Part shown: positions 2,019 through 63,027 of the stretch, one piece after another
Layout of the letters: every line of letters begins with the position of its first letter
Position numbering within the stretch: position 1 is the first letter of the stretch
NCBI GenBank assembly: GCA_012520995.1
Contig: JAAYNI010000080.1
Span: 25,823 to 89,822, forward strand
Direction of reading: 5' to 3'
DNA: 64,000 nucleotides
Origin: Candidatus Rifleibacteriota bacterium
GTDB lineage: Bacteria; Muiribacteriota; Ozemobacteria; Ozemobacterales; Ozemobacteraceae
The notes under the pieces: model-generated
Database searches by the model: none
Told to the model about the DNA's origin: nothing
The model's input: only the letters and a program-made list of their open reading frames with translations
Translations under genes and position numbers: made by a program

Positions 2019-3380
2019 CTAAGCGCCTTTAAAAAAGGCATTTACCGCCTCTTTGAGGGTTTTCACTTTAATTATACCTTTACCTGCTTCTATATCCGAA
2101 TAAGAAGAAACCATAATCTTTTTAAATCCAAAACGTCTGGCTTCAGCTATGCGTCTCGATAGCTGGCTCACAGGACGGATTTCACCAGAGAGAGTAACTT
2201 CACCTGCGCATATAGTATCTTTTGGAAAAGGTTTATCCATAAGGCTGCCAGCAAGAGCAAGAGCCAAAGGCAAATCGCCGCCTGGTTCAGAAAGTCTCAA
2301 GCCTCCTGCGACATTGGCATAAACATCTTTGTTATAAAATTTTACTCCGCCATGTCTCTCCAAAACAGCTATAAGCAATCCAAGCTTATTGGGATCCATC
2401 CCGGAAACCACTCTTCTGGGCATAGGCAAATAAGATTGAGTCACCAAAGCCTGGATCTCTGCCAAAATACAGCGACTGCCCTGCAAAAGCGGAGCAACCA
2501 ACACGCCTGGAGACTCTGTTCTGTTTTGATTGATAAAAATATCAGAGGGATTTATTACAGAAGTAAGCCCGTTATCAGTCATTTGAAAAACACTCACTTC
2601 ACCCGTGGCTCCGTAGCGATTTTTAAAAACGCGTAAAATGCGGAAGTTGGAATTGGTCTCACCTTCAAAATATAAAACCGTATCTACTATGTGTTCCAGA
2701 ATCTTGGGGCCTGCAATATTGCCGTCTTTGGTAACATGGCCTACTATAAACACAGGCAATTGTCTTTCTTTGCCAAACTTTGTCAACATTGAGGCACATT
2801 CCCTGATTTGTCCAACAGAACCGGGAGAAGATTCCAAATTAGGCGTGTAAACAGTCTGAATAGAGTCAACAATCAAGACTCGAGGCAAATAGGAAGCCAA
2901 AGCGTTCAAAGCCGAGTTCAGATTTTGTTCCGCAAGCAGATATATATCACTGCCATTGCCTATGCCAAGCCTGTCTGCACGCAGTTTTATCTGAGTCGCA
3001 GATTCTTCGCCTGAAATGTAAGCCACAGGCTTTATATTGACTCCAAGGCGTGAAATCAGCTGAAGCATGAAAGTAGACTTGCCTACCCCAGGCTCGCCGC
3101 CTATCAAAGTTATTCCGCCTGGCACAAGACCGCCGCCAATCATCTCATCGAAAACGTCTATGCCTGTCATCCAACGCTGAGTGCGTTCAGTTTTAATATC
3201 CCCGAGATTTTCTACTATGGCCAAGGTGCCGCCAGCCATGATATCGCCCCGGGAACCCTTAGGAACTTCTACTTCCTCCGCCAATGTATTCCATTCCTGA
3301 CAAGAAGAACATTGTCCTGCCCATTTTGGAAAACTTTGCCCACAACTCTGACACACATAAACTGTTTTAACTTTTGCCAT
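2019..3380 (-). CDS. radA: DNA repair protein RadA/Sms
   Basis: N-terminal C4 zinc finger CQSCG...CSSC, GGEPGVGKST, KNRYG motif, Lon-like C-terminus. Confidence 0.97.
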   Translation of the reverse strand: MAKVKTVYVCQSCGQSFPKWAGQCSSCQEWNTLAEEVEVPKGSRGDIMAGGTLAIVENLGDIKTERTQRWMTGIDVFDEMIGGGLVPGGITLIGGEPGVGKSTFMLQLISRLGVNIKPVAYISGEESATQIKLRADRLGIGNGSDIYLLAEQNLNSALNALASYLPRVLIVDSIQTVYTPNLESSPGSVGQIRECASMLTKFGKERQLPVFIVGHVTKDGNIAGPKILEHIVDTVLYFEGETNSNFRILRVFKNRYGATGEVSVFQMTDNGLTSVINPSDIFINQNRTESPGVLVAPLLQGSRCILAEIQALVTQSYLPMPRRVVSGMDPNKLGLLIAVLERHGGVKFYNKDVYANVAGGLRLSEPGGDLPLALALAGSLMDKPFPKDTICAGEVTLSGEIRPVSQLSRRIAEARRFGFKKIMVSSYSDIEAGKGIIKVKTLKEAVNAFFKGA

Positions 3381-6234
3381 TGCCTTTTTTTGCTTTTTGC
3401 TTCAGCTCCTGTTTAAGATACTGTCCAGTTAAGGATTTTTTGTTAGCGGCCACCTTTTCAGGAGTTCCTTCTGCTACTATTTCACCGCCTAAATTGCCGC
3501 CTTTTGGACCAAGATCTATTATGTGATCCGCTACCTTTATTACATCAAGATTGTGCTCAATAATCAAGACAGTATTGCCTTTTTCCACAAGACGCTCCAA
3601 AATTGCCAATAAAGATTTTATGTCTTTAAAGTGCAAACCTGTAGTCGGTTCATCAAGCAAATAGAGAGTCGAGCCTGTCGCTATTTTGGAAAGCTCCGCA
3701 GCCAGCTTCATGCGTTGTGCCTCACCGCCTGAAAGAGTAGTAGCCGGTTGCCCCAAAGTCAGATAACCCAACCCCACGTCATGCAGTGCCTGAAGCCTGC
3801 GTTTTATGGCCGTAAAAGCCTCGAAAAACTCCAATGCTTCATCAACAGTCATAGCCAGCACTTCGGCAATACTTAAGCCTTTAAACTTGATTTTAAGGGT
3901 TTCCGAATTGAAACGCTGTCCCTTGCAATAATCACAAGTAACATAAACATCCGGCATAAAGTGCATTTCAATCTGCAATTCTCCCATGCCCTCGCAAGCA
4001 TCGCATCTGCCGCCTTTCACATTGAAACTGAATCGTCCTGGCGTATAACCTCGGGTTTTCGCCTCTTTGGTCTGCGCGAAAAGGTCTCTTATGTAAGAAA
4101 AAACGCCTGTATATGTTGCGGGATTAGATCGAGAACTCCTTCCGATCGGTGACTGGTCAATATTTACAACCTTGTCGATATTTTTAAGACCGGTTATCTT
4201 TTCGTAAGCTCCCACATCATATGTAGTCCGATAAACCATGTTGCTCAAAAGCGGAAATAAAGTATCATTAACCAAACTGGACTTTCCTGAGCCTGAAACA
4301 CCTGTAACAGCCACAAGTTTGCCCAGAGGAATATCCACATCAATATTTTTCAGATTGTTATGAGAAGCGCCTTTGAGCTTTATAAACTTCCCGCTTCCCT
4401 TACGTCTTTCTTTAGGAACTGGAATAAAATCTTCTCCGCTCAAAAAACTGCCCGTCACACTGTTTTTGTCTGCCGCTATTTCAGCAGGAGTACCTTGAGC
4501 TACGAGATAACCGCCTTCTTTGCCGGCAGCCGGCCCCAAGTCGATAATCTGGTCAGCCTCAAACATTATCTCTTTGTCATGCTCCACAACCAAAACAGTG
4601 TTCCCCAAGTCTCTAAGGCCTTTTAAAGTTTCTATCAACTTAGAGTTGTCGCTCGGATGAAGACCAATGCTAGGCTCATCCAAAACATAGGTAATGCCTA
4701 CCAGAGCTGATCCGATCTGAGTCGCCAGTCTGATTCGCTGTGCTTCACCGCCTGATAAAGTGCCGGAAGCTCTGTTTAAATCCAAATAATCCAAACCGAC
4801 ATCGTTCAGAAAATTTAAACGGTTTACAATTTGTGCCAAAACCTTGCCGCTAATTTGCCTTTCTTTTTCTGTCAGCTCCAAATTATTGAAAAAATCTACG
4901 AGTTCTTTGATGGTATGAGAAGAAAGCTCATAAATATTTTCTCCGGCTATTCTTACTGAAAGAGCAGCCGGATTCAAACGTCTGCCCTTGCAGTCATCAC
5001 AAGGAAGCATTTTCATAAATCTTTCATAAAAGCGCCTAGCCATATCCGAGCGAGTTTCCGCATGGCGTCTTGCGACTATATTCACTAAACCTTCGTAGGG
5101 TCTTGAAATCTCGCCTTTTACGCCTCTGCCGGAAAGAGCAACCTTTACAGGCTCATCACCCGTGCCGTAAAGAATAACATTTTGAGCCTTTTCCGAAAGA
5201 TCTTTAAAAGGCGTATCCAAAGAAAAGTCATATTGTTTAGACAATGCTTTGAGCCACCTGTTCGAAATAGAACCATCGAGCAAGAAGTTCTGAGCTCTGA
5301 TAGCTCCTTTGGATATAGGCAAAGACCAATCTTTAATAGTAAGTCCCGGATCCGGCACCAGTTTGTGGCCTATACCCGAGCAAGCAGAACAAGAACCATA
5401 AGGAGCATTAAAAGAAAACAGCCTTGGCTTTATATCGGGAAGAGAAATACCGCAATCGTTGCACATGTGGTTTTCATTGTACATTTTTTCGAAGGGTTCG
5501 TCAGAATCGGGCAAATTCACCATTGTCAGTACATGACCTTCCGACATTTTAAACGAAAGTTCCACAGCTTCCATTACCCGCTGAATATTATCTTCTTTGG
5601 AGGCTTTATCGGCCATAAGTCTGTCTATGACGACTTCTATATTGTGTTTCAGATTTCGATCCAGCTTAGGCATTTCTTCGTCCAAGAGCCACATATCGCC
5701 ATCGACTCTGACTCTGCTCATGCCTTCTTTTAAGAATTCCTCGAAAACCTTGCCGTATTCACCTTTACGGCCTCTTACAACAGGCGACATTAAAGTAATG
5801 GCAGTTCCGTCAGGATATTTCAAGATTTCTTGAGCAATTTGAATAGGGGAAGAAATCTCAACAGGCTTGCCGCACTCTGGACAATGAGGCTTTCCAATAG
5901 CGGCAAACAGCAGCCTGAAATAGTCATAAATTTCTGTAACTGTGCCCACAGTAGAGCGAGGGTTATTGGAGACCGTCTTTTGCTGTATAGCAATTGTCGG
6001 AGAAAGTCCCTCGATACTTACAACATCAGGTTTTTCAACTTTTTGCAGAAATTGGCGGGCATAGGAAGAAAGGGATTCCATGTATCGCCTTTGCCCTTCA
6101 GCATGAATAGTATCAAATGCCAAAGAAGACTTTCCTGAACCTGAAACCCCGGTTATGACTGTTAGAGCGTTTGAAGGAATAACAAGATCAATGCTTTTAA
6201 GGTTATGCACCTTAGCTTTTTCTATGCGAATCAT
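3367..6234 (-). CDS. uvrA: Excinuclease ABC subunit A
   Basis: Two ABC ATPase modules (GVSGSGKSS twice, LSGGEAQR twice), zinc fingers, 955 aa. Confidence 0.98.
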
Positions 6235-15039: not shown

Positions 15040-15208
15040 CTATCCACAGATGGACACAGATTCATACAGATGAGGGCACAGAAAGATATACAACGGTTAT
15101 TTATCGACTTCTTGAAGCAGTTGACAGTCCCATGTTGAATTCTAAACAATTCAACTCGCCACGCACCACTCGCCACTCATCACTGATTTTTAACCTGCGG
15201 TTAAAAAT
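15040..15208. repeat. Intergenic repeat-arm locus A
   Basis: Left 9-mer arm ctatccacagatggacacagattcatacagat (15040-15071); right 7-mer arm ctaaacaattcaactcgccacgcaccactcgccactcatcactg (15142-15185); then palindrome atttttaacc-tgc-ggttaaaaat (15186-15208). Confidence 0.85.
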
Positions 15209-27464: not shown

Positions 27465-27553
27465 GATCTGTTTCCGTCCGTTCTAACTGATTTCGCTACA
27501 TTATGCACGATTTTTCACTTCATGACAAGCACAGGAGTTAAGCTCGAAAAAAC

Positions 27554-27604
27554 AAACAATTTCACTACCCGCCACCCACCAACCACTACCCTCTCTAGTG
27601 CGGC
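27554..27604. repeat. Intergenic repeat-arm locus E
   Basis: aaacaatttcactacccgccacccaccaaccactaccctctctagtgcggc: right-type 7-mer arm with the aaacaatt subterminal motif. Confidence 0.7.
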
Positions 27605-27678
27605 TCTAGCATTTGAACAAACTAATTATTGAAAAGCAGCATAAGATTTTATAGGTAACTTTTAATGAAAATGCCGCA

Positions 27679-28947
27679 CTAGCGTAGTGCGCTTTGAGCC
27701 AAGATTATGTAGGAACTGCCAGGAAAATAGCGTTCTAAGGCTCCTAAAACTCTATAAGCCTCGTTGATATTTCCAAGCTCACGCAATATTCTTACAGCGT
27801 AGTAAAGAGAGCCTTCTTTTACCGCCTTGTCATTCGAATTCTCAAAGGCTGCCTTAAAGCCGTGATAAGCTTCTATCGTCATCCCTACCGCATATTGTGA
27901 ATAAGCGTTTAAAAAGACGTATCTATCATAAGGAACAATAGAAGGATCAGGAGTAAGATTTGCCAAAAGATCCAAAGCTATATGCGGATTTCTCTCCTGA
28001 ATATAACATTCAGCAAGCAGGTAAGCAGCTTTCTGGCGTTCTCTTACAGGCAAATTCGGCGAATTCAATGCTTCCGTAAAAGCTATCCTGGCAGAGATAT
28101 ATTCTCCGTCGCCAAAGTATTTTGCTCCGCGGTGAACATTTTCAGTCGCTGAAATAACTCGGGAATTATCCTGCAAAGTCTTTCTGATAAAAGAACTGGA
28201 ATATTTATTCAGGGTATCTTCCACAAGACCGCTATAACAGATTGAAAGTTCTCTTTGGACGTTACCGCTTGCCATAATCCGTTTGATAAAACGATGCAAG
28301 AGCTTATCGCCATAAGTTTCTACCAAATATTTGATCTTAAGATAATTTTCCACGTATTTTTCCAAAGAAATAGGATTGCCTTTGGGATTTTCGTCTTCAG
28401 AACCGAAACGTTCCAAACTGAATCCCTTTTGATTCAAAGCCTTTATTCTGGCCAAGCCCTGATCAGCCGCATGAACCGCCGTACCCTCTTTGATCCACAT
28501 GGGGAGAGCCTCATATTCTCTTAAGCCCATTATGTCAGCCATGACAGCATGGGTCATTTCGTGAGTCATTTCTTCAAGAAGTGTAGCCTCACCCTTCATG
28601 AGAAATTCCAAGTCCAAAAAGACATAGTGAACCAAGACGCCTTCTTGAGTTTTTATAGATTGCCTCTTGCCGCGTAATCTGACACCGCCGTGCATTAGTT
28701 TGTCATCAAAGATAACCACAAGATTCATGCCTCTTCTCGGGGGAATTCCCAGAGTTTGTTGAATTTTGGCTAAGGCTTCTTCATAGACATAGGGCAAATC
28801 AGCCATAATCTTTTCGAATTTTGCTGTACCCAAGTAGCGTCCTTGATAAGAGCTATCTACGTAAAAAGATGCAGAGCAATCAAAGGAAATTGCAAAAAAA
28901 AGCGTTACTAAAAATAGAAGCGGCAAGTTTTTCTTATTTTTTTCCAT
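27679..28947 (-). CDS. Secreted zinc metallopeptidase (MA-clan-like) with C-terminal TPR region
   Basis: Signal peptide; HEMTH (HExxH) plus downstream WIKEGTA Glu ligand; TPR-like helices (AAYLLAECY, LYYAVRI). Confidence 0.7.
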   Translation of the reverse strand: MEKNKKNLPLLFLVTLFFAISFDCSASFYVDSSYQGRYLGTAKFEKIMADLPYVYEEALAKIQQTLGIPPRRGMNLVVIFDDKLMHGGVRLRGKRQSIKTQEGVLVHYVFLDLEFLMKGEATLLEEMTHEMTHAVMADIMGLREYEALPMWIKEGTAVHAADQGLARIKALNQKGFSLERFGSEDENPKGNPISLEKYVENYLKIKYLVETYGDKLLHRFIKRIMASGNVQRELSICYSGLVEDTLNKYSSSFIRKTLQDNSRVISATENVHRGAKYFGDGEYISARIAFTEALNSPNLPVRERQKAAYLLAECYIQERNPHIALDLLANLTPDPSIVPYDRYVFLNAYSQYAVGMTIEAYHGFKAAFENSNDKAVKEGSLYYAVRILRELGNINEAYRVLGALERYFPGSSYIILAQSALR

Positions 28948-29064
28948 ATCTTTTATAGCTCCTGTTTTGAAACTAAAAAAATATGAAGAAAAATCAAGAA
29001 ATTATTTATAAACAGATGAAGACAGGTTTGTTGTTGTCAAAAAATAATTAAGAAAGTCATATAA

Positions 29065-29634
29065 AAAGTTGTTTCGGAAGAAAGGCGTATAAGAGTTGAC
29101 AACTACCCCACAGGACGCCTTTTGGAGGAGTTTTTCAGCACAGCTTACAAAGCACATCCATATGGTCAGCCAACTCTTGGGCATATGTCTGACATAGAAA
29201 ACTATAACAGACAAGATGCCGAAGCCTTTTACCGTAAATATTATACGCCTGCCAATATGACTATAGCTATAGTCGGAGATGCAGAGCCTGAAAAAACGAT
29301 TGAGCTTGTGAAAAAATATTGGATTCGCATACCGGCTGGGAAGGCAGCACGCAGAATTACAACTGTAGAGCCTCCTCAAAAGGCTGAACGCACGGTAAAT
29401 CTATATGACAAAACTCAGCCTTTCTGCCTTGTTGGATGGCATATTCCTGAAGTTGAAAAGATTATACTTCCTAACGGCTTACGCCTTTATATACTTGAAG
29501 ACAGTACTCTGCCGCTTTTCAGAGCTTCAGTAAGAGTTCATGGAGGTTCCTATCTTGAATCTCCCGAACAAACAGGCCTTTCAAAACGGTTCTCCGCTAA
29601 TAAAACAATTTTAACGCAACCTTTATCTCTATAA
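29065..29634 (+). pseudogene. Chimeric remnant of two M16 (pitrilysin-family) peptidase genes
   Basis: After an in-frame TAA (29062-29064): KVVSEERRIRVDN...AHPYGQPTLG...FYRKYYTPANMTIAIVGD...EPPQKAER...GWHIP (mid M16 chain), joined to EVEKIILPNGLRLYILED..LPL....VHGGSYLE..EQTGLS (start of a second M16 chain), then unrelated sequence. Confidence 0.8.
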
Positions 29635-29652
29635 AAACGAAGTAAAAGGAAA

Positions 29653-29716
29653 GCGGATGAAAAATCTTTTGTCCTTTTCCGTGTATTCTGTGTGTTCCGT
29701 GGTTTAAAAAGGTTTT
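29653..29716. repeat. Intergenic repeat-arm locus F
   Basis: 29676-29710 is an exact 35-bp inverted copy of 20743-20777. Confidence 0.9.
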
Positions 29717-29720
29717 GGGG

Positions 29721-31826
29721 TTATTTTTTCTTGCCTTGTTTCATGGCTTGAAAAAGCAAGCTTTTAAAGCTCTCCAGCATGGCTGAGTAATCGTTGAGCT
29801 TTTTGAAGCTTTCAAAGGCACCTTTGCTCAATTCATTGTAAACTTCGGGCTTGGATATCTCTAATAGGCTTTTACGAAGAGCTTCTGCATTTTCAGAAGG
29901 AACCAAAAAGCCGGAAATGCTGTCTTCTACGATCTCTTTCACCCCGCCGACATCCGTGGCCACGCATGGAATACCAAAACGCATCGCCTCCAACAAACTC
30001 AGAGGAATTCCCTCCCCCAGTGACGGCAAAAGCGCCACATCCATATCTTTTAAAATGGTATCCGGATCTGTTACAAACCCGTGAAATATCAATTTATCTG
30101 CCAATGGACCTGAAGAAAAAAGCTCTTTTAGATATTTTTCTTCGGGACCAGAGCCTAGAATATGGATTTTATTAATTTTATCCAATAAAACATCATCCGA
30201 TTCAATAGCCTTAAGAGCCCATTCATGCCCCTTGTTTTTATGAAGCTTAGCCGTTATTGAAATATCCAGCTTGTCTTTTTTGAGATTTTTGAAACCTACG
30301 GGCAGTTTATCTATGCAATTTTTGATGACAGTAATTTTTGCAGCAGCCCCACCTTGCTGCTCCATATGCTTTTTAATAGCATCTGAAACGGCTATCAAAT
30401 GGTCGCAGTTCTCGTAATAGCTTTTTTTATTAAGACCATGTATATGAGCCAAAACAGGAGTTGCGGTCATTTTACCGGATAAAGAAGAGAAAAGAGCCGC
30501 CCTGTTGAGATGCGCGCTTATTATATCGGGACTGAAACGCAAAATATCAGTCAAAAGCCTCAATAAAAAGAAAATACCGCCTGCTTTGCCAGAAACGGCT
30601 GACACCTCTGCTCCAACAGCTTCCAAAGCTGACTTCAGAGGTTCTCCTTGGCAAGTTGCAGAAACATTAAAGCGACCATCATTTACAAGAGCTTTTATAA
30701 GACCAAGGGCAAGTCTTTCGCCTCCGCCCAGCTCTTTTGAAGAAATAGCAAAATGCACATTATATTTTTTGTCCGTCATTGCAACGTAAACTTCCCTGAT
30801 TCGTTTTATGGATTTTTCCCTGTCAAATTTTTCAACGAGAACTCTAAAAGCTTCATCAACAATGTGAGGCAAAAAGCTTTTGTTTTCAAGCGCAAAAATC
30901 AAAGTTTCTGCCATTGGAAGAGGCAGAGGCTCAAACAAGAGACCTGTTTTTCTGTCCGATATTATCTCTTTTATCCCGCCCAGATCTGATGCCGCAACAG
31001 GAACTCCAGACAAAATCGCCTCGCAAATATTTATGCCAAAACCTTCGTCGCGAGAAGGCGAGACCAATAAATCCAGACTTTTCAAAAATGCTGTTTTTTC
31101 AGAAACATGTCCCGCAAAAAAACAGTTTTCTTGTAATTTCAGATCGGCAACAAGGTCTTTCAAGGAAGCAAGCTCCTTGCCTTCACCTGCAATGACACAG
31201 CGAAATACATAGCCTCGCTCTTTGAGAATAGAACAAGCTTTTATCAAAATGTCCAAGCCTTTGACTTTGTGAAGCCTTGAGAGAGTTCCAAAAGTAAAAG
31301 GCTCCCCTGCCATCTCAGGTGATACAGCGGAAATATTTTCTATAAAAACTCCCGGATAAGTTACCTCATACTTATTGTCAGGCAAAAAGCTGGAAGTTGT
31401 AAAATAGGCTTGCCGCAAATAGTCGCTTGAAAAGAAAAAGTAGTCAGAATCTTTTCTGGTTAAGCTCTCCACAGTTTCATAAAGTTTGCTTTCTTTGCCG
31501 TGAATAGAAACGATATGTGGAATATCAAGAATCTTAGCGGCAAAACGGCTCAACAATGTGGCTCTGTAAAGATGCGAATGAATTATATCTGGCTTAAATT
31601 CTGTTAAAAGGCGTAAAAGCTTGAAAAAACTTGGAATATCGAGATATTTCTCGCCCAAGAGTTCAAAGGAAATTCCATTTTCAAGAAGAAAAGGCTCATA
31701 AGCTCCTCCTCTGAAAGCTATTACCAGAAGCTTATCGCCTCTGTCATGAAAGGCTTTAACCGCGGAGAGAGCAAAATCCTGAGCTCCGCCTGTTGTCAGG
31801 GCGTTAATTACAACAACAATACGCAT
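29721..31826 (-). CDS. Tandem double GT4 (GT-B) glycosyltransferase
   Basis: Two complete GT4 modules, each starting GGA/GGE and each with an E-x7-E motif (EGFGINICE; EGIPLSLLE). Confidence 0.9.
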   Translation of the reverse strand: MRIVVVINALTTGGAQDFALSAVKAFHDRGDKLLVIAFRGGAYEPFLLENGISFELLGEKYLDIPSFFKLLRLLTEFKPDIIHSHLYRATLLSRFAAKILDIPHIVSIHGKESKLYETVESLTRKDSDYFFFSSDYLRQAYFTTSSFLPDNKYEVTYPGVFIENISAVSPEMAGEPFTFGTLSRLHKVKGLDILIKACSILKERGYVFRCVIAGEGKELASLKDLVADLKLQENCFFAGHVSEKTAFLKSLDLLVSPSRDEGFGINICEAILSGVPVAASDLGGIKEIISDRKTGLLFEPLPLPMAETLIFALENKSFLPHIVDEAFRVLVEKFDREKSIKRIREVYVAMTDKKYNVHFAISSKELGGGERLALGLIKALVNDGRFNVSATCQGEPLKSALEAVGAEVSAVSGKAGGIFFLLRLLTDILRFSPDIISAHLNRAALFSSLSGKMTATPVLAHIHGLNKKSYYENCDHLIAVSDAIKKHMEQQGGAAAKITVIKNCIDKLPVGFKNLKKDKLDISITAKLHKNKGHEWALKAIESDDVLLDKINKIHILGSGPEEKYLKELFSSGPLADKLIFHGFVTDPDTILKDMDVALLPSLGEGIPLSLLEAMRFGIPCVATDVGGVKEIVEDSISGFLVPSENAEALRKSLLEISKPEVYNELSKGAFESFKKLNDYSAMLESFKSLLFQAMKQGKKK

Positions 31827-31900: not shown

Positions 31901-32427
31901 AGTGATGAGTGGCGGGTGACGAGTGGCGAGTGAAATTGTTTAGACAAACTTATTTATGTTTTTCAAACTTGCGATTAGCCTGTTCAATAATCGACTCACT
32001 TCCTCTGAAAGCCCCAATAGCTCCTGAACTGTAGCGGGATTAAGATACCCCAAACGCTTGGCTATAAAAATTTGGGTCTCTAGCTCTGCTTTGGGCCTCT
32101 AGCAATTGACAAAAAATTAAGAAATTCTGCTGTTGATTGTCTTGCCTGACCTTCTGCTATATTGGATGGAATAGAAATTGCTGAACGCCTGAGTTGACTG
32201 GTCAACACATAACGTTCTTCATCTGGATTTTTTTACTTGCCTTATATACTAGTTGCACTAAATCCATTGCCTTTTGCCAAACGATCAAATCTTGATAACT
32301 CTTAATTGCCACTATTTGGCTCCTCTCAACAAGGGATTTAATATTGATTTGATTTTTCCGTCAAGTCTTTGATTAATACAAGTTAAAACATTCCAACTCG
32401 CCACTCGCCACTCATCACTCGCCACTG
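31901..32427. mobile_element. Putative small cassette: inverted 7-mer repeat arms enclosing a four-helix-bundle gene (locus G)
   Basis: Left arm agtgatgagtggcgggtgacgagtggcgagtgaaattgtttag (31901-31943) and inverted right arm aaaacattccaactcgccactcgccactcatcactcgccactg (32385-32427). Mobility is inferred. Confidence 0.55.
31940..32312 (-). pseudogene. Four-helix-bundle protein (TIGR02436 / 23S rRNA-IVS protein / Avd-like) with two -1 frameshifts
   Basis: Not in the ORF track. AGGAG RBS and GTG at 32312. Manual reconstruction: [89 protein letters not shown]...LSEEVSRLLNRLIASL. Shifts near 32228 (T7 run) and near 32094; 373 bp plus 2 gives 125 codons. Confidence 0.9.
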
Positions 32428-32453
32428 ATGCAATGGCTACCGCCATTGCATCA
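32426..32453. terminator. Perfect 12-bp hairpin containing the dnaB stop codon
   Basis: tgatgcaatggc-tacc-gccattgcatca. No U-tract follows, so terminator function is uncertain. Confidence 0.45.
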
Positions 32454-33797
32454 TGGTTCCGTGTAGAAGGTTTCCAGAGTGTCGAACCTTGCGCAGGAAG
32501 AGTTAAAAGCCAATCTTACCGTTCCCACAGGGCCGTTTCTCTGTTTAGCTATAATAGCTTCTGCTTGGCCTTTTATGTCTTCTTTTTTTGGATTGTAATA
32601 TTCTTCTCTATACAAGAACATGACTACGTCGGCGTCCTGTTCTATAGCTCCTGATTCGCGCAAGTCTGAAAGCATCGGTCTTTTATCAGGGCGCGACTCC
32701 ACAGCTCTGGAAAGCTGCGAAAGACAAATAACAGGAACATTAAGCTCTCTCGCCAAACCTTTGAGGCTTCTGGAAATTGCTGATACCTCTTGCTGACGGC
32801 TCTCAGGCCTGTCTTGTCCAGACCAGGTAATGAGCTGCAAATAGTCTATTATTATAAGACCGATTTTCTCTTGAGCGAAAGCTCTTCTAGCCTTGCTTCG
32901 TATTTCCATCATGCTTGCGTTTGGCGTATCATCCAAAATAATTGGCGCTTCCGAAAGCACGCCCGAAGCCATAGAAAGTTTTCTCCACTCTTCATCGCTG
33001 ATATAGCCTCTGCGCAGCTTGGAACCGTCTACTCTGGCCTCGGAAGATAAAAGCCTTGTTACCAGTTGAGAATGCGACATTTCCAGAGAAAAAATCATTA
33101 CGGGAACATCTTTATAAGCGGCGTTGGCAGCTATATTCATAGCCATAGCGGTTTTTCCCATTGAAGGTCTTGCCGCAAGTATTACTAAATCAGAGGGCTG
33201 AAACCCTGCCGTATATTCATCTAAACGAGGAAAACCGCTAGTAACACCTGTAACGCTGGTTTTATTGTCATGCAGCTGCTCCAAGTGGTTAAAAGTCGGA
33301 ATGAGCAAATCCTTCAGTTTTTGATAAGGCTTAGTTACCTTGAATCTGCTCAGCTGCAATATTCGTTGTTCAGCCGTATCTATCAAAGGCTCGGCTTCAG
33401 CTTGAGGGTCATAAGCGGAATCTACTATTTCCGAAGAGACTGTTATCAGCCTGCGAAGCATTGCTTTTTCTTTTACAATCTTAGCATAGAACTCCGCATT
33501 CTTTGAGGTGGGTACAGCATTCAAAAGCTGTGAAAGATAGCTCAGTCCGCCAACCTCGGCCAGTTTTCCATTGGCTTTGAGCTGCTCTTGCAGAGTAACT
33601 ATATCACAAGGCTTTTGGGCAGCATAAAGAGCTGCAAGAGCCTTAAAAATTTCTCTATGAGAGACTTGATAAAAATCATCTTCAGAAATTACATCAAAAG
33701 CAGTTATAAAAGCCTCTTCACTCAGCATCATGGAGCCCAAGAGGGATTGCTCTGCATCCAGATTTTGAGGCGGAACCTTTTGAAAAAAATCAGCCAA
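32451..33797 (-). CDS. dnaB: Replicative DNA helicase
   Basis: PPQNLDAEQ, AARPSMGKT, IDYLQL, SQLSR, SDLRESGAIEQDAD, KQRNGP; no intein. Confidence 0.98.
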   Translation of the reverse strand: MADFFQKVPPQNLDAEQSLLGSMMLSEEAFITAFDVISEDDFYQVSHREIFKALAALYAAQKPCDIVTLQEQLKANGKLAEVGGLSYLSQLLNAVPTSKNAEFYAKIVKEKAMLRRLITVSSEIVDSAYDPQAEAEPLIDTAEQRILQLSRFKVTKPYQKLKDLLIPTFNHLEQLHDNKTSVTGVTSGFPRLDEYTAGFQPSDLVILAARPSMGKTAMAMNIAANAAYKDVPVMIFSLEMSHSQLVTRLLSSEARVDGSKLRRGYISDEEWRKLSMASGVLSEAPIILDDTPNASMMEIRSKARRAFAQEKIGLIIIDYLQLITWSGQDRPESRQQEVSAISRSLKGLARELNVPVICLSQLSRAVESRPDKRPMLSDLRESGAIEQDADVVMFLYREEYYNPKKEDIKGQAEAIIAKQRNGPVGTVRLAFNSSCARFDTLETFYTEP

Positions 33798-33825: not shown

Positions 33826-34020
33826 CAGTGAACAGTGGACTGAATGAACCAGTGATGAGTGGCGAGTGGTGCGTGAGAACCAACCAACAGCTATAACAGC
33901 CCGTTCTATCCACAGATTACACAGATGACACAGATAAAAAAGCAACAACCTTTACACACACAGAACACACGGACAGACTCCAACAGGCTAAAAATTACGC
34001 CAAAACTTCGTTTTTTGCCA
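33826..34020. repeat. Intergenic repeat-arm locus H
   Basis: cagtgatgagtggcgagtggtgcgtg (33850-33875) is an exact 26-bp inverted copy of 15160-15185. Also ctatccacagattacacagatgacacagat (33906-33935), cacacagaacacacgga, and ctaaaaattacgccaaaacttcgttttttgcca (33988-34020), whose inverted near-copy is at 37145-37183. Confidence 0.9.
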
Positions 34021-36825: not shown

Positions 36826-37393
36826 AGGGCGTAGTGGCTAGGGAGTAGAGAGTAGAAAATACGACAACTATCCACAGATTACACAGATGAAAGACCAAAA
36901 ACTTCTAAAAACCACGTAACAAAAAGAACGAAAAAATTTTCAAAACCCTTTTATAAACCACAGAACACACCTTAAAAACAGCGATTGTAGATAGAAAGGG
37001 CAACGAACAAGCAGTGGTGAGTGGCGAGCAAAAAACATCAAGACGTAGGGCTTCAATGAATTAGAAATTAGAAATTAGAAATGAATGTTTAAAACTCAAT
37101 TGCTAGACTAATAAATGCTTTGCAATTACTTTTCTAGTTTTTAATGGCAAAATCGAAAACGAAGTTTTGGCTTATTTTTTAGCATTGTCAATGCTGACTC
37201 CCGGATATTGCTTCTAACCCGCCACTCGCCACGCGGCACTGCTTTTTAAGCTAGCTTAAAAAGACTATCTGTGTAATCTGTGGATAATATGTCTTTGGAG
37301 TTTTTCCGTGTATTCCGTGTGTTCTGTGGTTCAATAAAGGTTTCTGAGGTTTTTCGTATTTTTCGTGTGTTTCGTGTGTTTCGTGGTTGAAAA
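36826..37393. repeat. Intergenic repeat-arm locus I (largest; five left arms, central TTAGAAA array, four right arms)
   Basis: For example tatccacagattacacagat (36869-36888) and its exact 20-bp inverse (37267-37286); ttagaaattagaaattagaaat (37061-37082); 22-bp palindrome at 37242-37263. Confidence 0.92.
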
Positions 37394-46534: not shown

Positions 46535-47088
46535 AGGAAAAAAACACCAAGACAGTAACTGTATTTTGTGCCTCTTCAGACAATCTTTCTGAGCAAATAA
46601 AGCTCTTATCAGCAAGATTCGCTGAGCTTTTGGCTAAAAAAAATTGCCACATGATATACGGCGGTACTTCTACAGGCCTTATGGGAACAATAGCAAACGC
46701 TTATAAAGAAGCGGGAGGCCATCTTATAGGAATTGTGCCTGAATATTTCATCAAAAGAGGCGAAAAATACAGCCTCTTGGATGAAACTCACTACGTTTCC
46801 TCTGTAAGCGAACGCAAACAGATGATGGTAAAACTCTCTGACGCTCTGATTATGCTGCCAGGCGGAATAGGAACCTATGACGAGTTCTTTGACGCGCTAG
46901 CGCGAAAACAGCTCGGACAATGCGTGGCCTCCATTTACATTTTTAATGCCTGCGGCTTTTATGACAAGTTTCTGGAAATGCTTGCTTATGGAGTAGAAAA
47001 TGGAGCCATAACGAGTGAAACAATGCAGCTTTTCAAGGTATTCGACTCTCCCGAGAAACTGGCGGAAGACATTAACTTAAAACAGTGA
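46531..47088 (+). CDS. LOG-family (TIGR00730) nucleoside monophosphate phosphoribohydrolase
   Basis: VFCASS, YGG...GLMG, ERKQMM, PGGIGTYDE. Confidence 0.92.
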   Translation: MKEKNTKTVTVFCASSDNLSEQIKLLSARFAELLAKKNCHMIYGGTSTGLMGTIANAYKEAGGHLIGIVPEYFIKRGEKYSLLDETHYVSSVSERKQMMVKLSDALIMLPGGIGTYDEFFDALARKQLGQCVASIYIFNACGFYDKFLEMLAYGVENGAITSETMQLFKVFDSPEKLAEDINLKQ

Positions 47089-47463
47089 TTAGTGGTCAGT
47101 GGACAGAAACAGCTAGCGATAAGTGGCGAGTTAAATAGTTAAATTGTTTAGGACTCAATATTACAGCCAACAACTGCTTTGAGATGCTAATAAACAACAG
47201 AAACTCTTGGAATTTTTATCCACAGATTACACAGATAGCCACAGATGAGGACAAAATGGTCAAAAATTGCATTCTGCTACCGCATAATCACGATTTTTGC
47301 CCTAGCCTCTGATTAAGAACAGACACATAACAACAATGGCTTGTGGGTAGCGGATAATTGGCAAAGAGGACAATTAACAGCCAGTGATGAGTGGTGGCAG
47401 GCGGCGAGTTATATTCAAGCCCGCCACCCACCACGAATAGTAATTTTTAAGCAGCTTAAAAAT
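47083..47463. repeat. Intergenic repeat-arm locus J
   Basis: cagtgattagtggtcagtgg (overlaps the LOG stop), agtggcgag...aaattgtttag, ttatccacagattacacagatagccacagat (47216-47246), cagtgatgagtggtggcaggcggcgag, cccgccacccaccacg, palindrome at 47443-47463. Confidence 0.85.
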
Positions 47464-55729: not shown

Positions 55730-55785
55730 GTGATGAGTGATGATGAGTGATGAGTGATGAGTGGTGCGTGGCGGGCGGCGAGTTG
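55730..55785. repeat. Intergenic repeat-arm locus K (expanded GTGATGA array)
   Basis: gtgatgagtgatgatgagtgatgagtgatgagtggtgcgtggcgggcggcgagttg between convergent genes. Confidence 0.85.
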
Positions 55786-55804
55786 AGCACTGACCGCCAG
55801 CTTT

Positions 55805-58570: not shown

Positions 58571-58599
58571 TTGTCAGAGCGGGAGGCATGTGATACAAT
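58571..58599 (+). promoter_or_regulatory. Sigma70-type promoter of tRNA-Leu
   Basis: TTGTCA-N17-TACAAT with extended -10 TGn, 11 bp before the tRNA. Confidence 0.75.
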
Positions 58600-58610
58600 G
58601 AACGAACATT

Positions 58611-58695
58611 GCCAGAATGGCGGAATTGGCAGACGCACGGGACTCAAAATCCCGCGCCCCATAAAGGCGTGTCGGTTCAACCCCGACTTCTGGCA
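58611..58695 (+). tRNA. tRNA-Leu (CAA)
   Basis: Acceptor GCCAGAA/TTCTGGC, anticodon arm CGGGA-CTCAAAA-TCCCG, long variable arm, T arm GTCGG-TTCAACC-CCGAC, discriminator A; CCA not encoded. Confidence 0.95.
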
Positions 58696-58702
58696 TTTTT
58701 TT

Positions 58703-59665
58703 ATGCCTAATTTCCACGGATTCTTAAAGCTTTTAAAAAAGAATTCGGCAATCCCGCTCTTAGCCTTATCTTTCCTGTTCTTCACAATTCCTCTTTTATC
58801 TAAACCTATTGAAGTAGCTGTTTTCAGCGATCTAAACTTTGCTCCCCAGCTTTTCGATATGATAAAATCTGAGCTGGAAACCACACTGAAAGCAAGATGC
58901 ACCCTGAGAATATATCCAATTTCAGAAATGACGAAAGAAAAAGATTTTTCGCATCTTTCCTGCTTGATGTATGAAGAACATAAGGCAAAAGCTCCCTCAA
59001 ACCTGACAGAAAACTTTATAAAAAGTAATTTTTATATAGACCTTTTGTGGCTTCTGACAGGCTCCGAAAAAAAACTCCGATATATATACTTTAACCATAT
59101 GTCTCTAGACTACGAAGGCTTTTTGAATATTCTAAGAGAACTTAGAAAAAGAGACAGCGACCATTTTCCTTGGCTTGAATCACTCGGTTCAACAAACACT
59201 CTGTTCAATTTTCATATAATATTTAACGACAATCTTTCACTGGAAGAGCAAGCAGAAGCAGAAATTCCTCTCAAACAGATATTTGAAAAAGCCGCCGAAG
59301 AAAACTTGCTTAACCCGATATCAACAAAAGCGGATCTTTTTCTTGCCGCTGAAGCCTTTAATAACGAAGATGCCGTGTTTGTTTCTCAATGGCTCCCAGC
59401 GAAAATGATATTTGATAAAAAAACAGCTGAAATCTTTCTGCCGCCTTCCATAATTATCCCCTTCCCTAGTCCAAAAGGCTTAAGAACAGTTCCTTTTGTA
59501 AGATTAAGTTTGTGGATAAATAAAGACTCTGACAGCTTTCATAATCTCCCCATTGGCTTTTCCCCGCCAGACACATTTAAACTCAGAAAATTACACCAGG
59601 ATCCGGATGAACTAAAAAAATGGATCTTGAAGTCCATCAGAAAATATGGAGAAACACGTCCATGA
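58703..59665 (+). CDS. Hypothetical exported protein, possibly a degenerate solute-binding-like partner of the kinase
   Basis: Signal/TM segment; stop overlaps the kinase ATG (ATGA). Start moved to 58703 because the track's start runs through the tRNA. Confidence 0.55.
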   Translation: MPNFHGFLKLLKKNSAIPLLALSFLFFTIPLLSKPIEVAVFSDLNFAPQLFDMIKSELETTLKARCTLRIYPISEMTKEKDFSHLSCLMYEEHKAKAPSNLTENFIKSNFYIDLLWLLTGSEKKLRYIYFNHMSLDYEGFLNILRELRKRDSDHFPWLESLGSTNTLFNFHIIFNDNLSLEEQAEAEIPLKQIFEKAAEENLLNPISTKADLFLAAEAFNNEDAVFVSQWLPAKMIFDKKTAEIFLPPSIIIPFPSPKGLRTVPFVRLSLWINKDSDSFHNLPIGFSPPDTFKLRKLHQDPDELKKWILKSIRKYGETRP

Positions 59666-61386
59666 AGCGTTTTTTTTCTCCCCTAGCCTTAAAAGTAATA
59701 CTCCTTTTCATACTTTTAATGACTGTCTTAGCTATGGCTATTAATGCCACTTCCACAGAGTTGATTAAAGAAAAAACTGGAGAAACCTTTCAAAAAAGCC
59801 TTCAAAACCTCTCAAAAGCTCTCTATTCCACTTGGAAATCAGAAAAACATCAAACTCTGAAAAATGCCATGCTCCTCGCGGAATCAGAAAAAATAATAAA
59901 TTATTCCGCATACAGCATGGACAATCTATTGAAAAACGAACTTCTCAGGTCGCACAGGAAAACAGATTTCAGCGAAATAGAAGTTAAAATGAAAAACGGT
60001 CTGAACGTTTCTACAAAGCATTATAAAACAAGAAACCTGCTTCCGATTGATACCAAAAACAGCGATTACAACCTTGCAAGAGTCGAGCCCGTAATAGAAA
60101 AAGGAGAGCTCACAATAACAGCTGCCACTCCCTTATACAAGCAAGGCGAATTCATAGGCAGACTTTGTCTGAAAAAAAGACTGGATCAAGCTATGGTCAA
60201 ACGATTTTCAGAAAATCTGCAAACAGAGCTGATTTTCATATCTGGTACTGAAATATTGGCTTCAACCCTATCATCTGAAGAAACAAGAATTGCTGAAAAG
60301 CATCTGAAAAGAAAAGATTTTCCCAGAAAAGAATTTTTCGACTTGGAGACTGGGAGCAACATCTACACATTTACGCAAACTGTTTTGGACACAACCGATA
60401 AAGGAGAGCTTCTCTTTTGTCTTTTGGGTATTTCAAAAGCTTCAACGCTAAGCATGATCAAGGAAGCAAGAACCAGAAATCTTTCAGTATCCCTGGCTTT
60501 ACTTACTCTTAGCCTCTTAGCAGCTTTCGTATTTACACATTTTGTATTTCTTTCCAGAATCAGAAAATTGGCTCAAGGTGCTCACAATCTGGCTGAAAAT
60601 AAAGAAAACTGCCATATACCAGACTTAGGACAAGACGAACTGGGAGATTTGGGCAGAGCCTTTAACAATATGTTTGAGAAAATCGCAGAAAGCAAAGAAA
60701 TGGAGAAACAGCTTTTCAGAGCCGAAAAGCTCAGCTCTGTCGGACAATTGGCAGCAAGCGTAGCTCACGAAATAAAAAATCCTTTGGCCTCAATTAAAAC
60801 CTTGGCGCAACTGATTCAAGAGGAAACCCCTAAGGATGACACCAGACGAGAATACGCTGACATAGTGGTCAACGAGGTGAACAGACTAAACTCTGTAGTG
60901 GAACAGCTCTTGAATTTCGCCAGACACGAAGAATCAAAAATAGAAGAGACACCTTTCAAGCCAATAGCAGAACATGTCTTGGCGCTTATAAAGCATGAAG
61001 GCGAAAGAAACAAAGTTACTTTAGAAGCTTCTTATGAACCTGATTTAATAATTTTTGCAGATTCAGAGAAGCTCAAACAAGTTATTTTAAACCTCTTCTT
61101 TAACGGCATGCAGTCGGTGAAAAAAGACGGATATGTTAAGCTGGAAGCTTCTAAAACTGATTCCGGATGCCTAATAGAAATTTCCGATTCCGGCAAAGGC
61201 ATTCCTCAAGAATTAGCAGAAAAAATCTTTGAACCCTTTTACACTACAAAACAAAGAGGAACAGGCCTAGGACTTGCTATTGTAAAGAAAATCATAGATC
61301 TGCACGAAGGCAAAATAAGCATTTCAAAAAGCACTTCCGGAGGAGCTAAAGTCTCCATTTTTCTGCCAAACGCGAAAAAACAGTAA
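59662..61386 (+). CDS. Sensor histidine kinase (periplasmic domain, HAMP, HisKA, HATPase)
   Basis: Two TMs, DELGDLGRAFN, VAHEIKNPL, QVILNL, DSGKGI, PFYTTK..GTGLGL. Confidence 0.95.
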   Translation: MKRFFSPLALKVILLFILLMTVLAMAINATSTELIKEKTGETFQKSLQNLSKALYSTWKSEKHQTLKNAMLLAESEKIINYSAYSMDNLLKNELLRSHRKTDFSEIEVKMKNGLNVSTKHYKTRNLLPIDTKNSDYNLARVEPVIEKGELTITAATPLYKQGEFIGRLCLKKRLDQAMVKRFSENLQTELIFISGTEILASTLSSEETRIAEKHLKRKDFPRKEFFDLETGSNIYTFTQTVLDTTDKGELLFCLLGISKASTLSMIKEARTRNLSVSLALLTLSLLAAFVFTHFVFLSRIRKLAQGAHNLAENKENCHIPDLGQDELGDLGRAFNNMFEKIAESKEMEKQLFRAEKLSSVGQLAASVAHEIKNPLASIKTLAQLIQEETPKDDTRREYADIVVNEVNRLNSVVEQLLNFARHEESKIEETPFKPIAEHVLALIKHEGERNKVTLEASYEPDLIIFADSEKLKQVILNLFFNGMQSVKKDGYVKLEASKTDSGCLIEISDSGKGIPQELAEKIFEPFYTTKQRGTGLGLAIVKKIIDLHEGKISISKSTSGGAKVSIFLPNAKKQ

Positions 61387-61533
61387 GCAGCAGACGGAGG
61401 GCAGCGAACTGCATAACAGGTGGTCATTAGATACAGCAAGCTTCAATAAATTAGAAACCTGATCTCCAAAAAGAAAGGCTGCGACAATTTGATCTGGTTG
61501 CTAAAAGCTGTTGTCAGTTGTAATATGAAGTTG

Positions 61534-61600
61534 CTAAACATTTCCGCTTGCCACTCATCACTCACCACTGTTTTTAATAATCTGTGAAATCTGTGGATAA
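61534..61600. repeat. Intergenic repeat-arm locus L
   Basis: ctaaacatttccgcttgccactcatcactcaccactg (61534-61570) and atctgtgaaatctgtggataa (61580-61600), both right-type. Confidence 0.8.
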
Positions 61601-61605
61601 AAAGA

Positions 61606-63003
61606 ATGACATTCAAAAACCATAACATACTGATAGTTGACGACGAAAAAGCTATTTTATTCAGCTTAAAAGCCGCATTGGCAAAAGAAGGCTACCGGAT
61701 AAAAACATGCGATACGCCAGAAGAAGCTCTCAAAACTGTTGAGCCTGGAGTTTTCCAAGTAATAATTTCAGATTACAACATGCCAGGAATGAACGGTATG
61801 GAATTAATGGAAAAAATCCGCCAAATAGACAAAGAAGCCGTCTTTATACTCATGACAGCTTATGGTTCTGAAAAACTAGCTATCGAAGCCGTAAAAGCGG
61901 GTGCCTACGACTACTTCTCGAAGCCATTCGACATTGACGAAATGCGTCTGATAGTGGCAAAAGCCTGCGAAAGATTCAACCTCGCTTATGAAAAGAAAAA
62001 CCTTCAGGAGCGATTGCAGAAAGAACAGGAAGAGAATCGCCTGATCGGCGTTTCAGAGCAAATGGAACGGGTCAAAAACATGATCAGCACAGTCGCCAAA
62101 AGCGATATAACAGTCTTAATACAAGGCGAGTCAGGCACTGGCAAAGAACTTGTAGCTGATGCCATTCAAAGACAAAGCCTCAGGGCTTCGGGACCCTATG
62201 TCGCTTTAAACTGTGCTGCTTTGCCAGAAAACCTTATAGAAAGCGAACTTTTCGGCTACGAAAAAGGCGCTTTCACTGGAGCCAACACAACCAAGCGCGG
62301 AAAATTCGAACTTGCAAACCGCGGCACTATACTGCTCGATGAAATAGGCGATATGGCTCTTGCAACTCAAGCAAAGGTTTTAAGAGTCATTCAAGAAAAA
62401 GAAGTAGAGCGTCTGGGCGGTTCAAAACCTATAAAAGTAGACGTGCGCATCTTAGCCGCTACCCATAAAAACCTTAAACAGCTCATTGAGCAAGGACTCT
62501 TCAGAGAAGATCTGTTCTACAGAATCAATGTTGTCAACATACCTGTGGCTCCATTGCGAGAAAGAAAAGCCGACCTGAAACCTTTAATAGAACACTTTAT
62601 AGCTATAGCTTCAAAAAAGACCAATAAAAACATCAAAGGTGTTTCCGAAAAAGCTATGGAAATCCTGGAAAATTACGATTGGCCTGGCAATGTTCGCCAG
62701 CTTCAGAACATAATTGAAGGTGCCGCCGTCTTTATGAAAGACGACATAATAGAAGTTTCCAATCTGCCGCCTGAACTCAGAAAGCCTCAAGGCGAAGAAG
62801 AAACAGGTGAAAGAAACGCCTGTTCTGAAATAATTGAACGCATCAAAGGCGGAGAAGCTTTAGACGCTGTTTTGAGCGACCTTGAAAAGCAAGTGATTGA
62901 AGCTGCTCTCAAAGCAAATGACTCTAATCAATCGAAAACAGCTGAAATGCTCGGCATAAAACGCGGCACTCTGCAATACAAGATGAAAAACCACAATTTA
63001 TGA
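61606..63003 (+). CDS. Sigma-54-dependent response regulator (NtrC/AtoC/ZraR family)
   Basis: REC (VDDE, SDYNMP), GESGTGKE, GAFTGA, LLDEIG, WPGNVRQL, C-terminal Fis HTH. Confidence 0.96.
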   Translation: MTFKNHNILIVDDEKAILFSLKAALAKEGYRIKTCDTPEEALKTVEPGVFQVIISDYNMPGMNGMELMEKIRQIDKEAVFILMTAYGSEKLAIEAVKAGAYDYFSKPFDIDEMRLIVAKACERFNLAYEKKNLQERLQKEQEENRLIGVSEQMERVKNMISTVAKSDITVLIQGESGTGKELVADAIQRQSLRASGPYVALNCAALPENLIESELFGYEKGAFTGANTTKRGKFELANRGTILLDEIGDMALATQAKVLRVIQEKEVERLGGSKPIKVDVRILAATHKNLKQLIEQGLFREDLFYRINVVNIPVAPLRERKADLKPLIEHFIAIASKKTNKNIKGVSEKAMEILENYDWPGNVRQLQNIIEGAAVFMKDDIIEVSNLPPELRKPQGEEETGERNACSEIIERIKGGEALDAVLSDLEKQVIEAALKANDSNQSKTAEMLGIKRGTLQYKMKNHNL

Positions 63004-63027
63004 CATCATAGTGCTTTTAATCTAAGA

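Follow-up and report, generated by a model that had tools for sequence, protein, structure and literature searches.

What occupies the spacer between dnaB and a glycosyltransferase gene in a Candidatus Rifleibacteriota genome, and does it belong there or has it come from elsewhere? The question is raised by contig JAAYNI010000080.1 (assembly GCA_012520995.1), of which a stretch of 64,000 nucleotides (positions 25,823 to 89,822, forward strand; referred to below as the window) was analysed. Within the window, a spacer of 624 bp separates a double-GT4 glycosyltransferase gene (29721-31826, minus strand) from dnaB (32451-33797, minus strand). Our conclusion is that this spacer probably holds a decaying cassette of about 530 bp, similar in type to the intervening sequences (IVSs) of 23S rRNA, which is promoterless and was acquired horizontally by one species of Riflebacteria. 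The evidence supports well that the unit is real and foreign to its lineage, that it resembles an rRNA intervening sequence in its build, and that it is decaying.

In the spacer, three short open reading frames (ORFs) are located on the minus strand (32202-32312, 32080-32208 and 31940-32053), in three different frames, with each continuing the previous one. The joined pieces encode a protein of 124 aa, which matched the four-helix-bundle (4HB) profile PF05635 over profile positions 1-105 of 106 (135.5 bits, cut-off 33.8) and TIGR02436 with 127.1 bits (cut-off 24). These results bear out the first-pass annotation of the locus, made from the letters alone, which had proposed a gene missed by the ORF track at 31940-32312 (minus strand), carrying two single-base deletions and belonging to the TIGR02436/23S rRNA-IVS protein family. 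Alignment to an intact, 98%-identical orthologue placed the first deletion in a homopolymer run at ∼32222-32228 and the second at ∼32094. The conserved motif of the IVS protein family is given as GxxRxxxSxxxNxxE in the passage of PMC3936711 that deals with it; RxxxSxxxNxxE is present in the 4HB protein, with Q in the position of G, and the same is true of the intact orthologue (P0001). Two solved relatives of the protein, 2gsc and 2rld, have five chains per entry each. A tblastn search found only this one 4HB gene in the window. Gene callers overlook the broken gene here, as well as nested copies elsewhere. No Rfam family was matched at the locus (the sole Rfam match in the window was a tRNA, and there was no rRNA), and PADLOC reported no defence family.

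The cassette and its immediate flank contain the following features, listed in the direction of transcription:

32426..32453, minus strand: perfect hairpin of 12 bp, overlapping the dnaB stop codon directly upstream of the 5' arm, with no U-tract after it
32383..32429, minus strand: 5' arm (coding strand), with five heptamer units, CAGTGGC GAGTGAT GAGTGGC GAGTGGC GAGTTGG, then AATGTTTTAAC
32313..32382, minus strand: gene leader, with the ribosome-binding site GAGAGGAG at 32320-32327, 7 nt before the GTG start codon
31940..32312, minus strand: PF05635/TIGR02436 4HB gene, 124 codons when intact, with two single-base deletions
31901..31943, minus strand: 3' arm, CTAAACAATT, then five units, TCACTCG CCACTCG TCACCCG CCACTCA TCACT

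The two arms (31901-31941 and 32386-32426) are inverted relative to each other and are 76% complementary over 41 nt, the best sub-alignments being 24 nt at 92% and 28 nt at 89%. Each is an array with a period of 7, composed of five CCACTCG-type heptamers, with an inner end that resembles CTAAACAATT. TAA, the gene's stop codon (31940-31942), lies inside CTAAACAATT (31934-31943); coordinates and alignment thus agree with the earlier description of inverted heptamer arms around the gene, with the stop codon within the motif of the left arm. There is no direct repeat at the outer ends of the arms. The hairpin at 32426..32453 folds separately from the arms, was not called as a terminator, and is read through by RNA contigs. 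A promoter read by hand in the leader (TTGACG-17-TTAAAT) was rejected, since a promoter scan of the minus strand gave no consensus match to it.

Is the broken reading frame genuine? Three haplotypes, ∼99% identical in DNA, were found at the site within one species, one with an intact gene and two in which it is independently broken. The form with two deletions is present in DNA runs X1-X4, X13 and X16 and in RNA runs X8-X10. In each of X1-X3 (biogas/digester metagenome DNA) one contig extends across the whole site and matches the window letter for letter; X4 is identical to the window in two abutting contigs, and in X13 and X16 the gene is covered in pieces, with zero differences from the window. 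The deletions are not assembly errors, because both are reproduced by independent metagenome assemblies, and the contigs of these DNA runs therefore confirm the two frameshifts that had been singled out for checking. The search for an intact copy, also proposed at the outset, was successful within the population: a 2068-nt contig from RNA run X12 (L001) carries the 124-aa orthologue P0001 at the same dnaB-gene-glycosyltransferase site. Short contigs from X17, X18 and X20 contain the diagnostic bases of the intact form, none of them spanning the whole gene. The third haplotype (L002, L003 = GCA_040364315.1, X11, X14 and X19) has a nonsense change and a 2-nt insertion. Judged from these sequences, the gene is inactivated twice independently within one species, from which we infer that the host can do without it. 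There are five units in the 5' arm of the window's haplotype and four in that of the other two, and this difference of one unit indicates that the arrays slip on the time scale of the haplotypes.

Contigs assembled from RNA runs are blind to processing, and DNA carry-over in the libraries is possible, which limits how the transcription data can be read. In each of the X8 and X9 libraries a single contig connects dnaB with the gene by way of the hairpin and the 5' arm, and the X12 contig spans the whole cassette. A scan of the cassette strand called no promoter or terminator. The simplest reading is that dnaB and the cassette are transcribed together. In the predicted fold of a 551-nt transcript, in both the minimum-energy and the centroid structure, the arms pair to form a long-range stem of ∼25-30 bp that encloses the gene; the fold had a z-score of -4.2 with the window sequence and of -5.5 with that of the intact haplotype.

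Is this layout peculiar to one locus? The 80 nearest relatives of the protein were collected from contigs representing one genome per species, and on inspection inverted heptamer arrays were visible in the flanks of almost all of them. For the 76 loci with usable flanks, the 150 nt upstream of the gene were compared with the 150 nt downstream and scored for complementarity, with z>5 as the threshold. Complementary flanks were found at 55 of the 76 loci, with a median score of 37, compared to 15.5 for direct comparison and for shuffled sequences. Among 707 control ORFs of 90-200 aa, from the same and from unrelated loci, the median was 16 and only 0.8% reached 30. The loci of the relatives contained 149 arrays with a period of 7, compared to 0-10 for other periods between 5 and 11. 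Within 250 nt of the gene there were 1.47 arrays per kb; the rest of these loci had 0.13 per kb, and a control set comprised of 409 kb of loci from a metagenome scan with DnaB had 0.024 per kb.

The units themselves vary widely: 39 distinct ones were identified, and both arms share their unit, within one mismatch, in 43 of 49 loci. The trinucleotide ACT (AGT in the 5' arm) is kept in 78% of units, and the median length of an array is 4.4-4.6 units. The 3' array starts at a median distance of 15 nt after the stop codon, and in 12 loci at or inside it. The arms change sequence together while keeping their period and complementarity, as a pairing constraint predicts. Some protein clades have a single unit type across phyla (L023/L038/L064/L069; L012/L082), which is expected if gene and arms travel together. 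There are also sister proteins with different units (L037 vs L051), as well as an orthologous PglX site with different units in L005, L006, L015 and L019. The gene is oriented in the same direction as both neighbours in 47 of 72 loci; this was taken as near the usual rate for adjacent bacterial genes and not as evidence.

Do the arms come with the gene, or are they present before it? In Nevskia soli (L071:2943-3402) and in a 93% relative (L168:1-472), arms and gene are located between nuoI and nuoJ. In L170, whose NuoJ is 86% identical, the nuoI stop codon is separated from the nuoJ start by 8 nt (1492-1501), with no array. The addition comprises the whole unit, beginning just past the nuoI stop codon and running as far as the outer edge of the 3' arm, and no target duplication was found in this filled/empty pair. 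In a further contig (L169:1047-1501) cassette and nuoJ are kept, and unrelated DNA, with a PrmA-like gene on the opposite strand, lies upstream of the 5' arm. These alignments show that, at least at nuoI-nuoJ in these Nevskia-like bacteria, the arms come with the gene and are not a pre-existing landing pad for it.

The corresponding site in related genera was examined for the origin of the cassette in Riflebacteria, where the next DnaB proteins are only 70-74% identical. Four related genera (L164-L167) have the gene order rpsF-ssb-rpsR-DUF2232-rplI-dnaB in common with the window. In 4/4 of them, a PAP2 phosphatase gene follows directly after dnaB and overlaps its stop codon (L164-L167:5350). 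The orthologue of the glycosyltransferase (42% identity) is next after PAP2 on the same strand in L166 and L167; in L164 and L165 it is on the opposite strand, past three other genes. Neither the 4HB gene nor any period-7 array was found within 9 kb in L164-L167, and no PAP2 gene was found in the 64-kb window, where the cassette stands in its place. The proposal that relatives might lack the insert therefore held for the gene and the arrays, which are missing from all four genera; it did not hold for the adjacency of dnaB and the glycosyltransferase gene, since PAP2 lies between them. As four related genera do not have it at this site, the gene is not syntenically fixed. A metagenome scan with DnaB returned nothing above 61% identity and was of no use for synteny. 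Identity to the nearest 4HB proteins does not exceed 71%, and these belong to other phyla (Spirochaetota, Chlorobiota, Pseudomonadota and others). These comparisons give good support to the view that the cassette is a lineage-specific arrival, acquired by horizontal transfer. Together with the predicted pairing of the arms, the layout shared across phyla and the filled/empty pair, the absence from related genera also upholds the earlier suggestion that gene and arms form a unit of ∼530 bp without a transposase.

How do the arms relate to the other heptamer arrays of the window? Both belong to a repeat family of ∼45 nt, consisting of CTAAACAATT and about five units, and ending in CACTG. Gene-less members of this family were identified at 15142, 27554, 33845, 37010/37205, 47083, 55731 and 61534:

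15142..15185, plus strand: single arm copy, CTAAACAATT and five units ending in CACTG, then a hairpin overlapping the stop codon of the neighbouring gene
27554..27600, plus strand: degenerate arm copy, CAAACAATT and CCACC-type units
33845..33875, minus strand: array upstream of dnaB, with an identical stretch of 19 nt, inverted, in common with the 5' arm
37010-37030 and 37205-37238, no strand assigned: inverted pair of arrays ∼190 nt apart, with no 4HB similarity between them
47083..47151, minus strand: arm copy with exact CTAAACAATT, beginning at the stop codon of the upstream gene
55731..55790, minus strand: long array of about eight units of the CACTCAT/CCACGCA type
61534..61571, plus strand: arm copy, CTAAACATT and four units ending in CACTG, 35 nt before the start of the next gene

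The copy at 15142-15185 is 84% identical to the 3' arm over 44 nt. The exact CTAAACAATT 10-mer occurs three times in the window (15142, 31934 and 47142), in each case abutting a heptamer array. With one mismatch allowed, it occurs 7 times, compared to 10.6 expected, which is not above chance; the signal therefore lies in adjacency to arrays and not in the number of motifs. That the motif persists at gene-less sites, as had been noted, is correct: it is exact at 15142 and 47142, a near copy at 61534, and weaker at 27554. The further step of taking these sites for relics of the cassette was rejected. Neither tblastn nor alignment to the interior of the cassette revealed gene remnants at the gene-less copies, where only the arms match, and most of these are single arms tied to other repeat modules (a hairpin, CACAGAT boxes). 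By this comparison they look like members of the same dispersed repeat family rather than decayed cassettes. The gene dnaB itself stands between inverted arrays (32396-32426 and 33845-33875), and assemblers cross-link the two, leaving contig pieces at 32401-32419.

Two further observations concern these spacers. In the pair at 37010-37238 there is a AATGTTTAAAAC motif resembling the cassette's 5' arm at its inner end; the pair could be what is left of arms plus leader, or could encode a small RNA. Several of the heptamer arrays have beside them another dispersed repeat (ATCCACAGATTACACAGATGA, with a period of 9 nt), at 33911-33935, 36880-36905, 37255-37280 and 61575-61600.

With which known systems can the cassette be compared? 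Neither a transposase, among the 42 ORFs scanned, nor a target-site duplication was found, either of which would mark an insertion sequence or a miniature inverted-repeat transposable element. The closest known kin are the ORF-bearing IVSs of 23S rRNA, known from Coxiella burnetii and Leptospira; by analogy the locus would work like an IVS without being one. In C. burnetii, the IVS carries an S23p gene of the same family, has a terminal stem of 28 bp, is excised by RNase III, and its ORF is decaying (PMC4990558). The cassette shares with these IVSs the protein family, the size (428-759 nt for IVSs, ∼530 bp here), pairing terminal inverted repeats that enclose the ORF, a sporadic, horizontally acquired distribution, and an ORF that decays in its host (PMC4990558). 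It differs in being located between protein-coding genes, and not in helix 9, 25 or 45 of 23S rRNA. Its arms, unlike those of the IVSs, are arrays of about five heptamers that also occur without a gene elsewhere in the genome. Excision by RNase III is a feature of IVSs; for the cassette it is only predicted.

A second resemblance is to repetitive extragenic palindromes (REPs) with their RAYT genes (REPINs) and to the NTS/ssnA system (PMC11893778), in which a small gene is likewise framed by inverted copies of a dispersed, gene-less intergenic repeat. In contrast to these, the protein of the cassette is a four-helix bundle without a known nuclease or HUH motif (PF05635 only), and tandem heptamer arrays take the place of a single palindrome as its repeats. 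Dispersed arrays of heptamers are themselves on record, in the passages on these repeats, as GGGAATC in Xanthomonas and GGGGA(C/T)T in Nostoc (PMC4692102), as TAACTGA in Beggiatoaceae (PMC4679880), and as heptanucleotide sites of four or five units in Geobacter metallireducens (PMC2700814). As described in those passages, such arrays resemble the present ones in their period of 7, their length of about four to five units, their spacers as locations, and their frequent arrangement as convergent inverted pairs; the difference is that here the arrays are the arms of a 4HB gene. A term search of PMC4692102, PMC4679880 and PMC2700814 gave no relevant mention of the 4HB gene family. Genes named 23S_rRNA_IVP, interspersed in cas operons, have been taken as possible Cas-associated functions, according to the passage on the family in PMC3936711. 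They are of the same family and are likewise wedged between co-oriented genes of an operon; unlike here, flanking repeats are unmentioned in that passage. No published link between the 4HB family and heptamer arms was found in the full-text literature searched, which did not cover subscription journals.

The protein also has the fold of Avd, the accessory protein of diversity-generating retroelements (DGRs), with which it shares a pentameric assembly and distant sequence similarity. The profile scores suggest that this link is one of fold and family only. The match to the DGR Avd equivalog NF033474 was 23.6 bits (cut-off 80) and that to bAvd (PF22296) 29.8 bits (cut-off 40), and no reverse transcriptase (RT) among the 42 scanned ORFs and no template/variable repeat pair (TR/VR) were found, in contrast to a DGR; the protein is a relative of Avd by fold, not a member.

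How might such a cassette operate? In order along its transcript it consists of a 5' heptamer arm, a ribosome-binding site, the 124-codon PF05635 gene and a 3' arm beginning at the stop codon. It probably entered one uncultured species of Riflebacteria by horizontal transfer, and it sits at the dnaB-glycosyltransferase junction. By analogy with the 23S IVSs, the stem formed by the arms may set the cassette apart within the host transcript and probably serve as a substrate of RNase III, and such processing would keep the insert harmless to its neighbours; we put this forward tentatively, at a little short of an even chance. The 4HB protein might, in addition, bind arrays of about five units, each composed of AGT/ACT and four variable bases, an idea that we regard as possible and lean against. 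Rather unlikely is an extended version, in which the 4HB pentamer would be a sequence-specific reader, with one subunit per 7-nt unit and four specificity bases beside AGT/ACT, the gene cassette being the autonomous member of the system and the dispersed spacer arrays its gene-less members.

Several results weigh against the view of the locus as an acquired, IVS-type cassette. A Pfam scan of 42 ORFs of the window (outside 58571-63990) found housekeeping, transport and envelope genes, and no RT, HUH nuclease, transposase or integrase; the proposed check for a linked RT or HUH nuclease was therefore negative among these ORFs. No target duplication was found either here or at nuoI-nuoJ. No empty allele or joint was present in 12 DNA and 4 RNA runs of the species, so that movement was not observed. 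Cleavage at the arms was not visible, and RNA contigs cross the 5' arm, though contigs cannot show processing. In the related genera the site is taken by another gene, PAP2, and is not cleanly empty. The share of loci with complementary flanks (72%, 55/76) applies to the 76 nearest relatives and not to the whole family. Finally, arrays of the same type occur in at least 8 other spacers of the window, even flanking dnaB, and the arms are therefore not unique to the gene.

The last of these points could be taken to mean that an ordinary resident gene happens to lie between two copies of a ubiquitous intergenic repeat, and that there is no unit at all. Many spacers of the window do hold arrays of the same type, and dnaB is flanked by an inverted pair as well. 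This explanation was already disfavoured and is highly improbable, as it leaves without an account the presence of the layout in many phyla (55 of 76 relatives, compared to 0.8% of controls), the stop codon built into the arm, the arrival of the arms with the gene at nuoI-nuoJ, and the lack of both gene and arrays at the site in related genera. It is also very unlikely that the gene encodes a domesticated regulator, an RNA-binding factor like HutP or TRAP acting on arrays at operon junctions, which the host is now losing. The arrays are indeed situated on the transcribed strand just after stop codons or just before starts; the part of PMC2700814 on paired sites of five heptamers in Geobacter proposed that an unknown global regulator binds them, and the corresponding part of PMC4679880 that TAACTGA repeats act as post-transcriptional signals. 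A regulator of this kind is hard to reconcile with a patchy distribution in which the nearest relatives are found in other phyla, with the absence of the gene from four related genera, with its independent inactivation in two haplotypes, or with relatives that are nested in defence methyltransferase ORFs.

The dispersed copies gain a different meaning if the 4HB protein is a trans-acting reader of heptamer units, as in a partner system of the REP/RAYT or Ssn/NTS type, with the cassette as master copy and the gene-less units as its dependants. This reading rests on the arrangement, shared with RAYT genes and ssnA (PMC11893778), in which inverted copies of a dispersed repeat stand on both sides of a gene. 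Both arms are of the same ∼45-nt family as at least 8 gene-less copies in 64 kb, and the combination of a fixed trinucleotide, four variable bases, about five units and five chains per solved entry would fit it, as would the clades that keep one unit type across phyla (L023/L038/L064/L069; L012/L082). On the other hand, no catalytic motif is known in the protein, two of the three haplotypes have a broken gene with no visible loss of arrays, and sister proteins may differ in their unit (L037 vs L051; the PglX site in L005, L006, L015 and L019). We consider such a system unlikely; it overlaps with the IVS-type cassette and does not exclude it. The chance that the locus is the remnant of a DGR, with the gene as its Avd, is next to nil: the matches to bAvd (29.8 bits, cut-off 40) and the Avd equivalog (23.6 bits, cut-off 80) are weak and fall short of the thresholds, there is no RT among the 42 scanned ORFs and no template/variable repeat pair, and the neighbours are dnaB and a GT4 glycosyltransferase gene. 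This candidate was rejected on the sub-cut-off scores and the missing RT. An IVS-type cassette, acquired and decaying, thus remains our preferred explanation.

The S23p/IVS protein family has been known since 1993 and has no function assigned to it. If gene and arrays were one system, this family would be joined to the unexplained excess of heptamer arrays in spacers. The IVSs of rRNA would then be only the earliest noticed of a far larger class of cassettes enclosed by hairpins; this class would also occupy operon junctions and, in relatives, genes for defence methyltransferases that continue to be read through. What the present locus adds is population data and the match of its arms to dispersed repeats. 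As material it offers one intact and two independently dead alleles, arms matching many gene-less copies, and transcripts leading from dnaB into the gene; as a natural experiment, the population can show what becomes of arrays after loss of the putative reader: persistence, slippage or decay.

Some relatives of the cassette are located within genes. In 10 of the 80 relatives (L004, L005, L006, L014, L015, L019, L032, L039, L059 and L083) it lies inside a large DNA methyltransferase ORF, of the BREX PglX/Eco57I type or the N6_N4 Mod type. In these nested cassettes the frame of the host is, without exception, frame -1 relative to the 4HB gene, and no stop codon interrupts it in the arms or the gene. 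This frame is open in 15 of 81 4HB genes, compared to 0.3-0.4% expected from codon shuffles. Compared with a solved PglX (8zek), the nested insert cleanly adds ∼140 aa, which lie between motif I and the N-terminal domain. The PglX ORF of Chlorobium sp. KB01 (L005:2130-6353) contains two nested 4HB genes (3001-3354 and 5563-5913) and at least one in-frame insert composed of arms only (VVSGQWPVVSEEK...LTTGHYPLATK), which is missing in the Nitrosomonas orthologue (L006). L015 has another arms-only insert, in a different place. A search for removal of the nested cassette at the RNA level in L019 found no joint; contigs break only in the heptamer arm.

A rearrangement was also observed between the window and the third haplotype. 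Comparison of window positions 27530-29763 with L002:2685-4225 showed that a gene of 422 aa (27679-28947), 86% identical, is inverted between flanks that are ∼99% identical. The region of a peptidase M16 fragment (window 29002-29634) is missing from L002; the 170-aa ORF located there (29122-29634, plus strand) matches only the inactive C-terminal domain of peptidase M16 and is probably a gene fragment. The breakpoints fall in spacers that contain the dispersed repeat modules.

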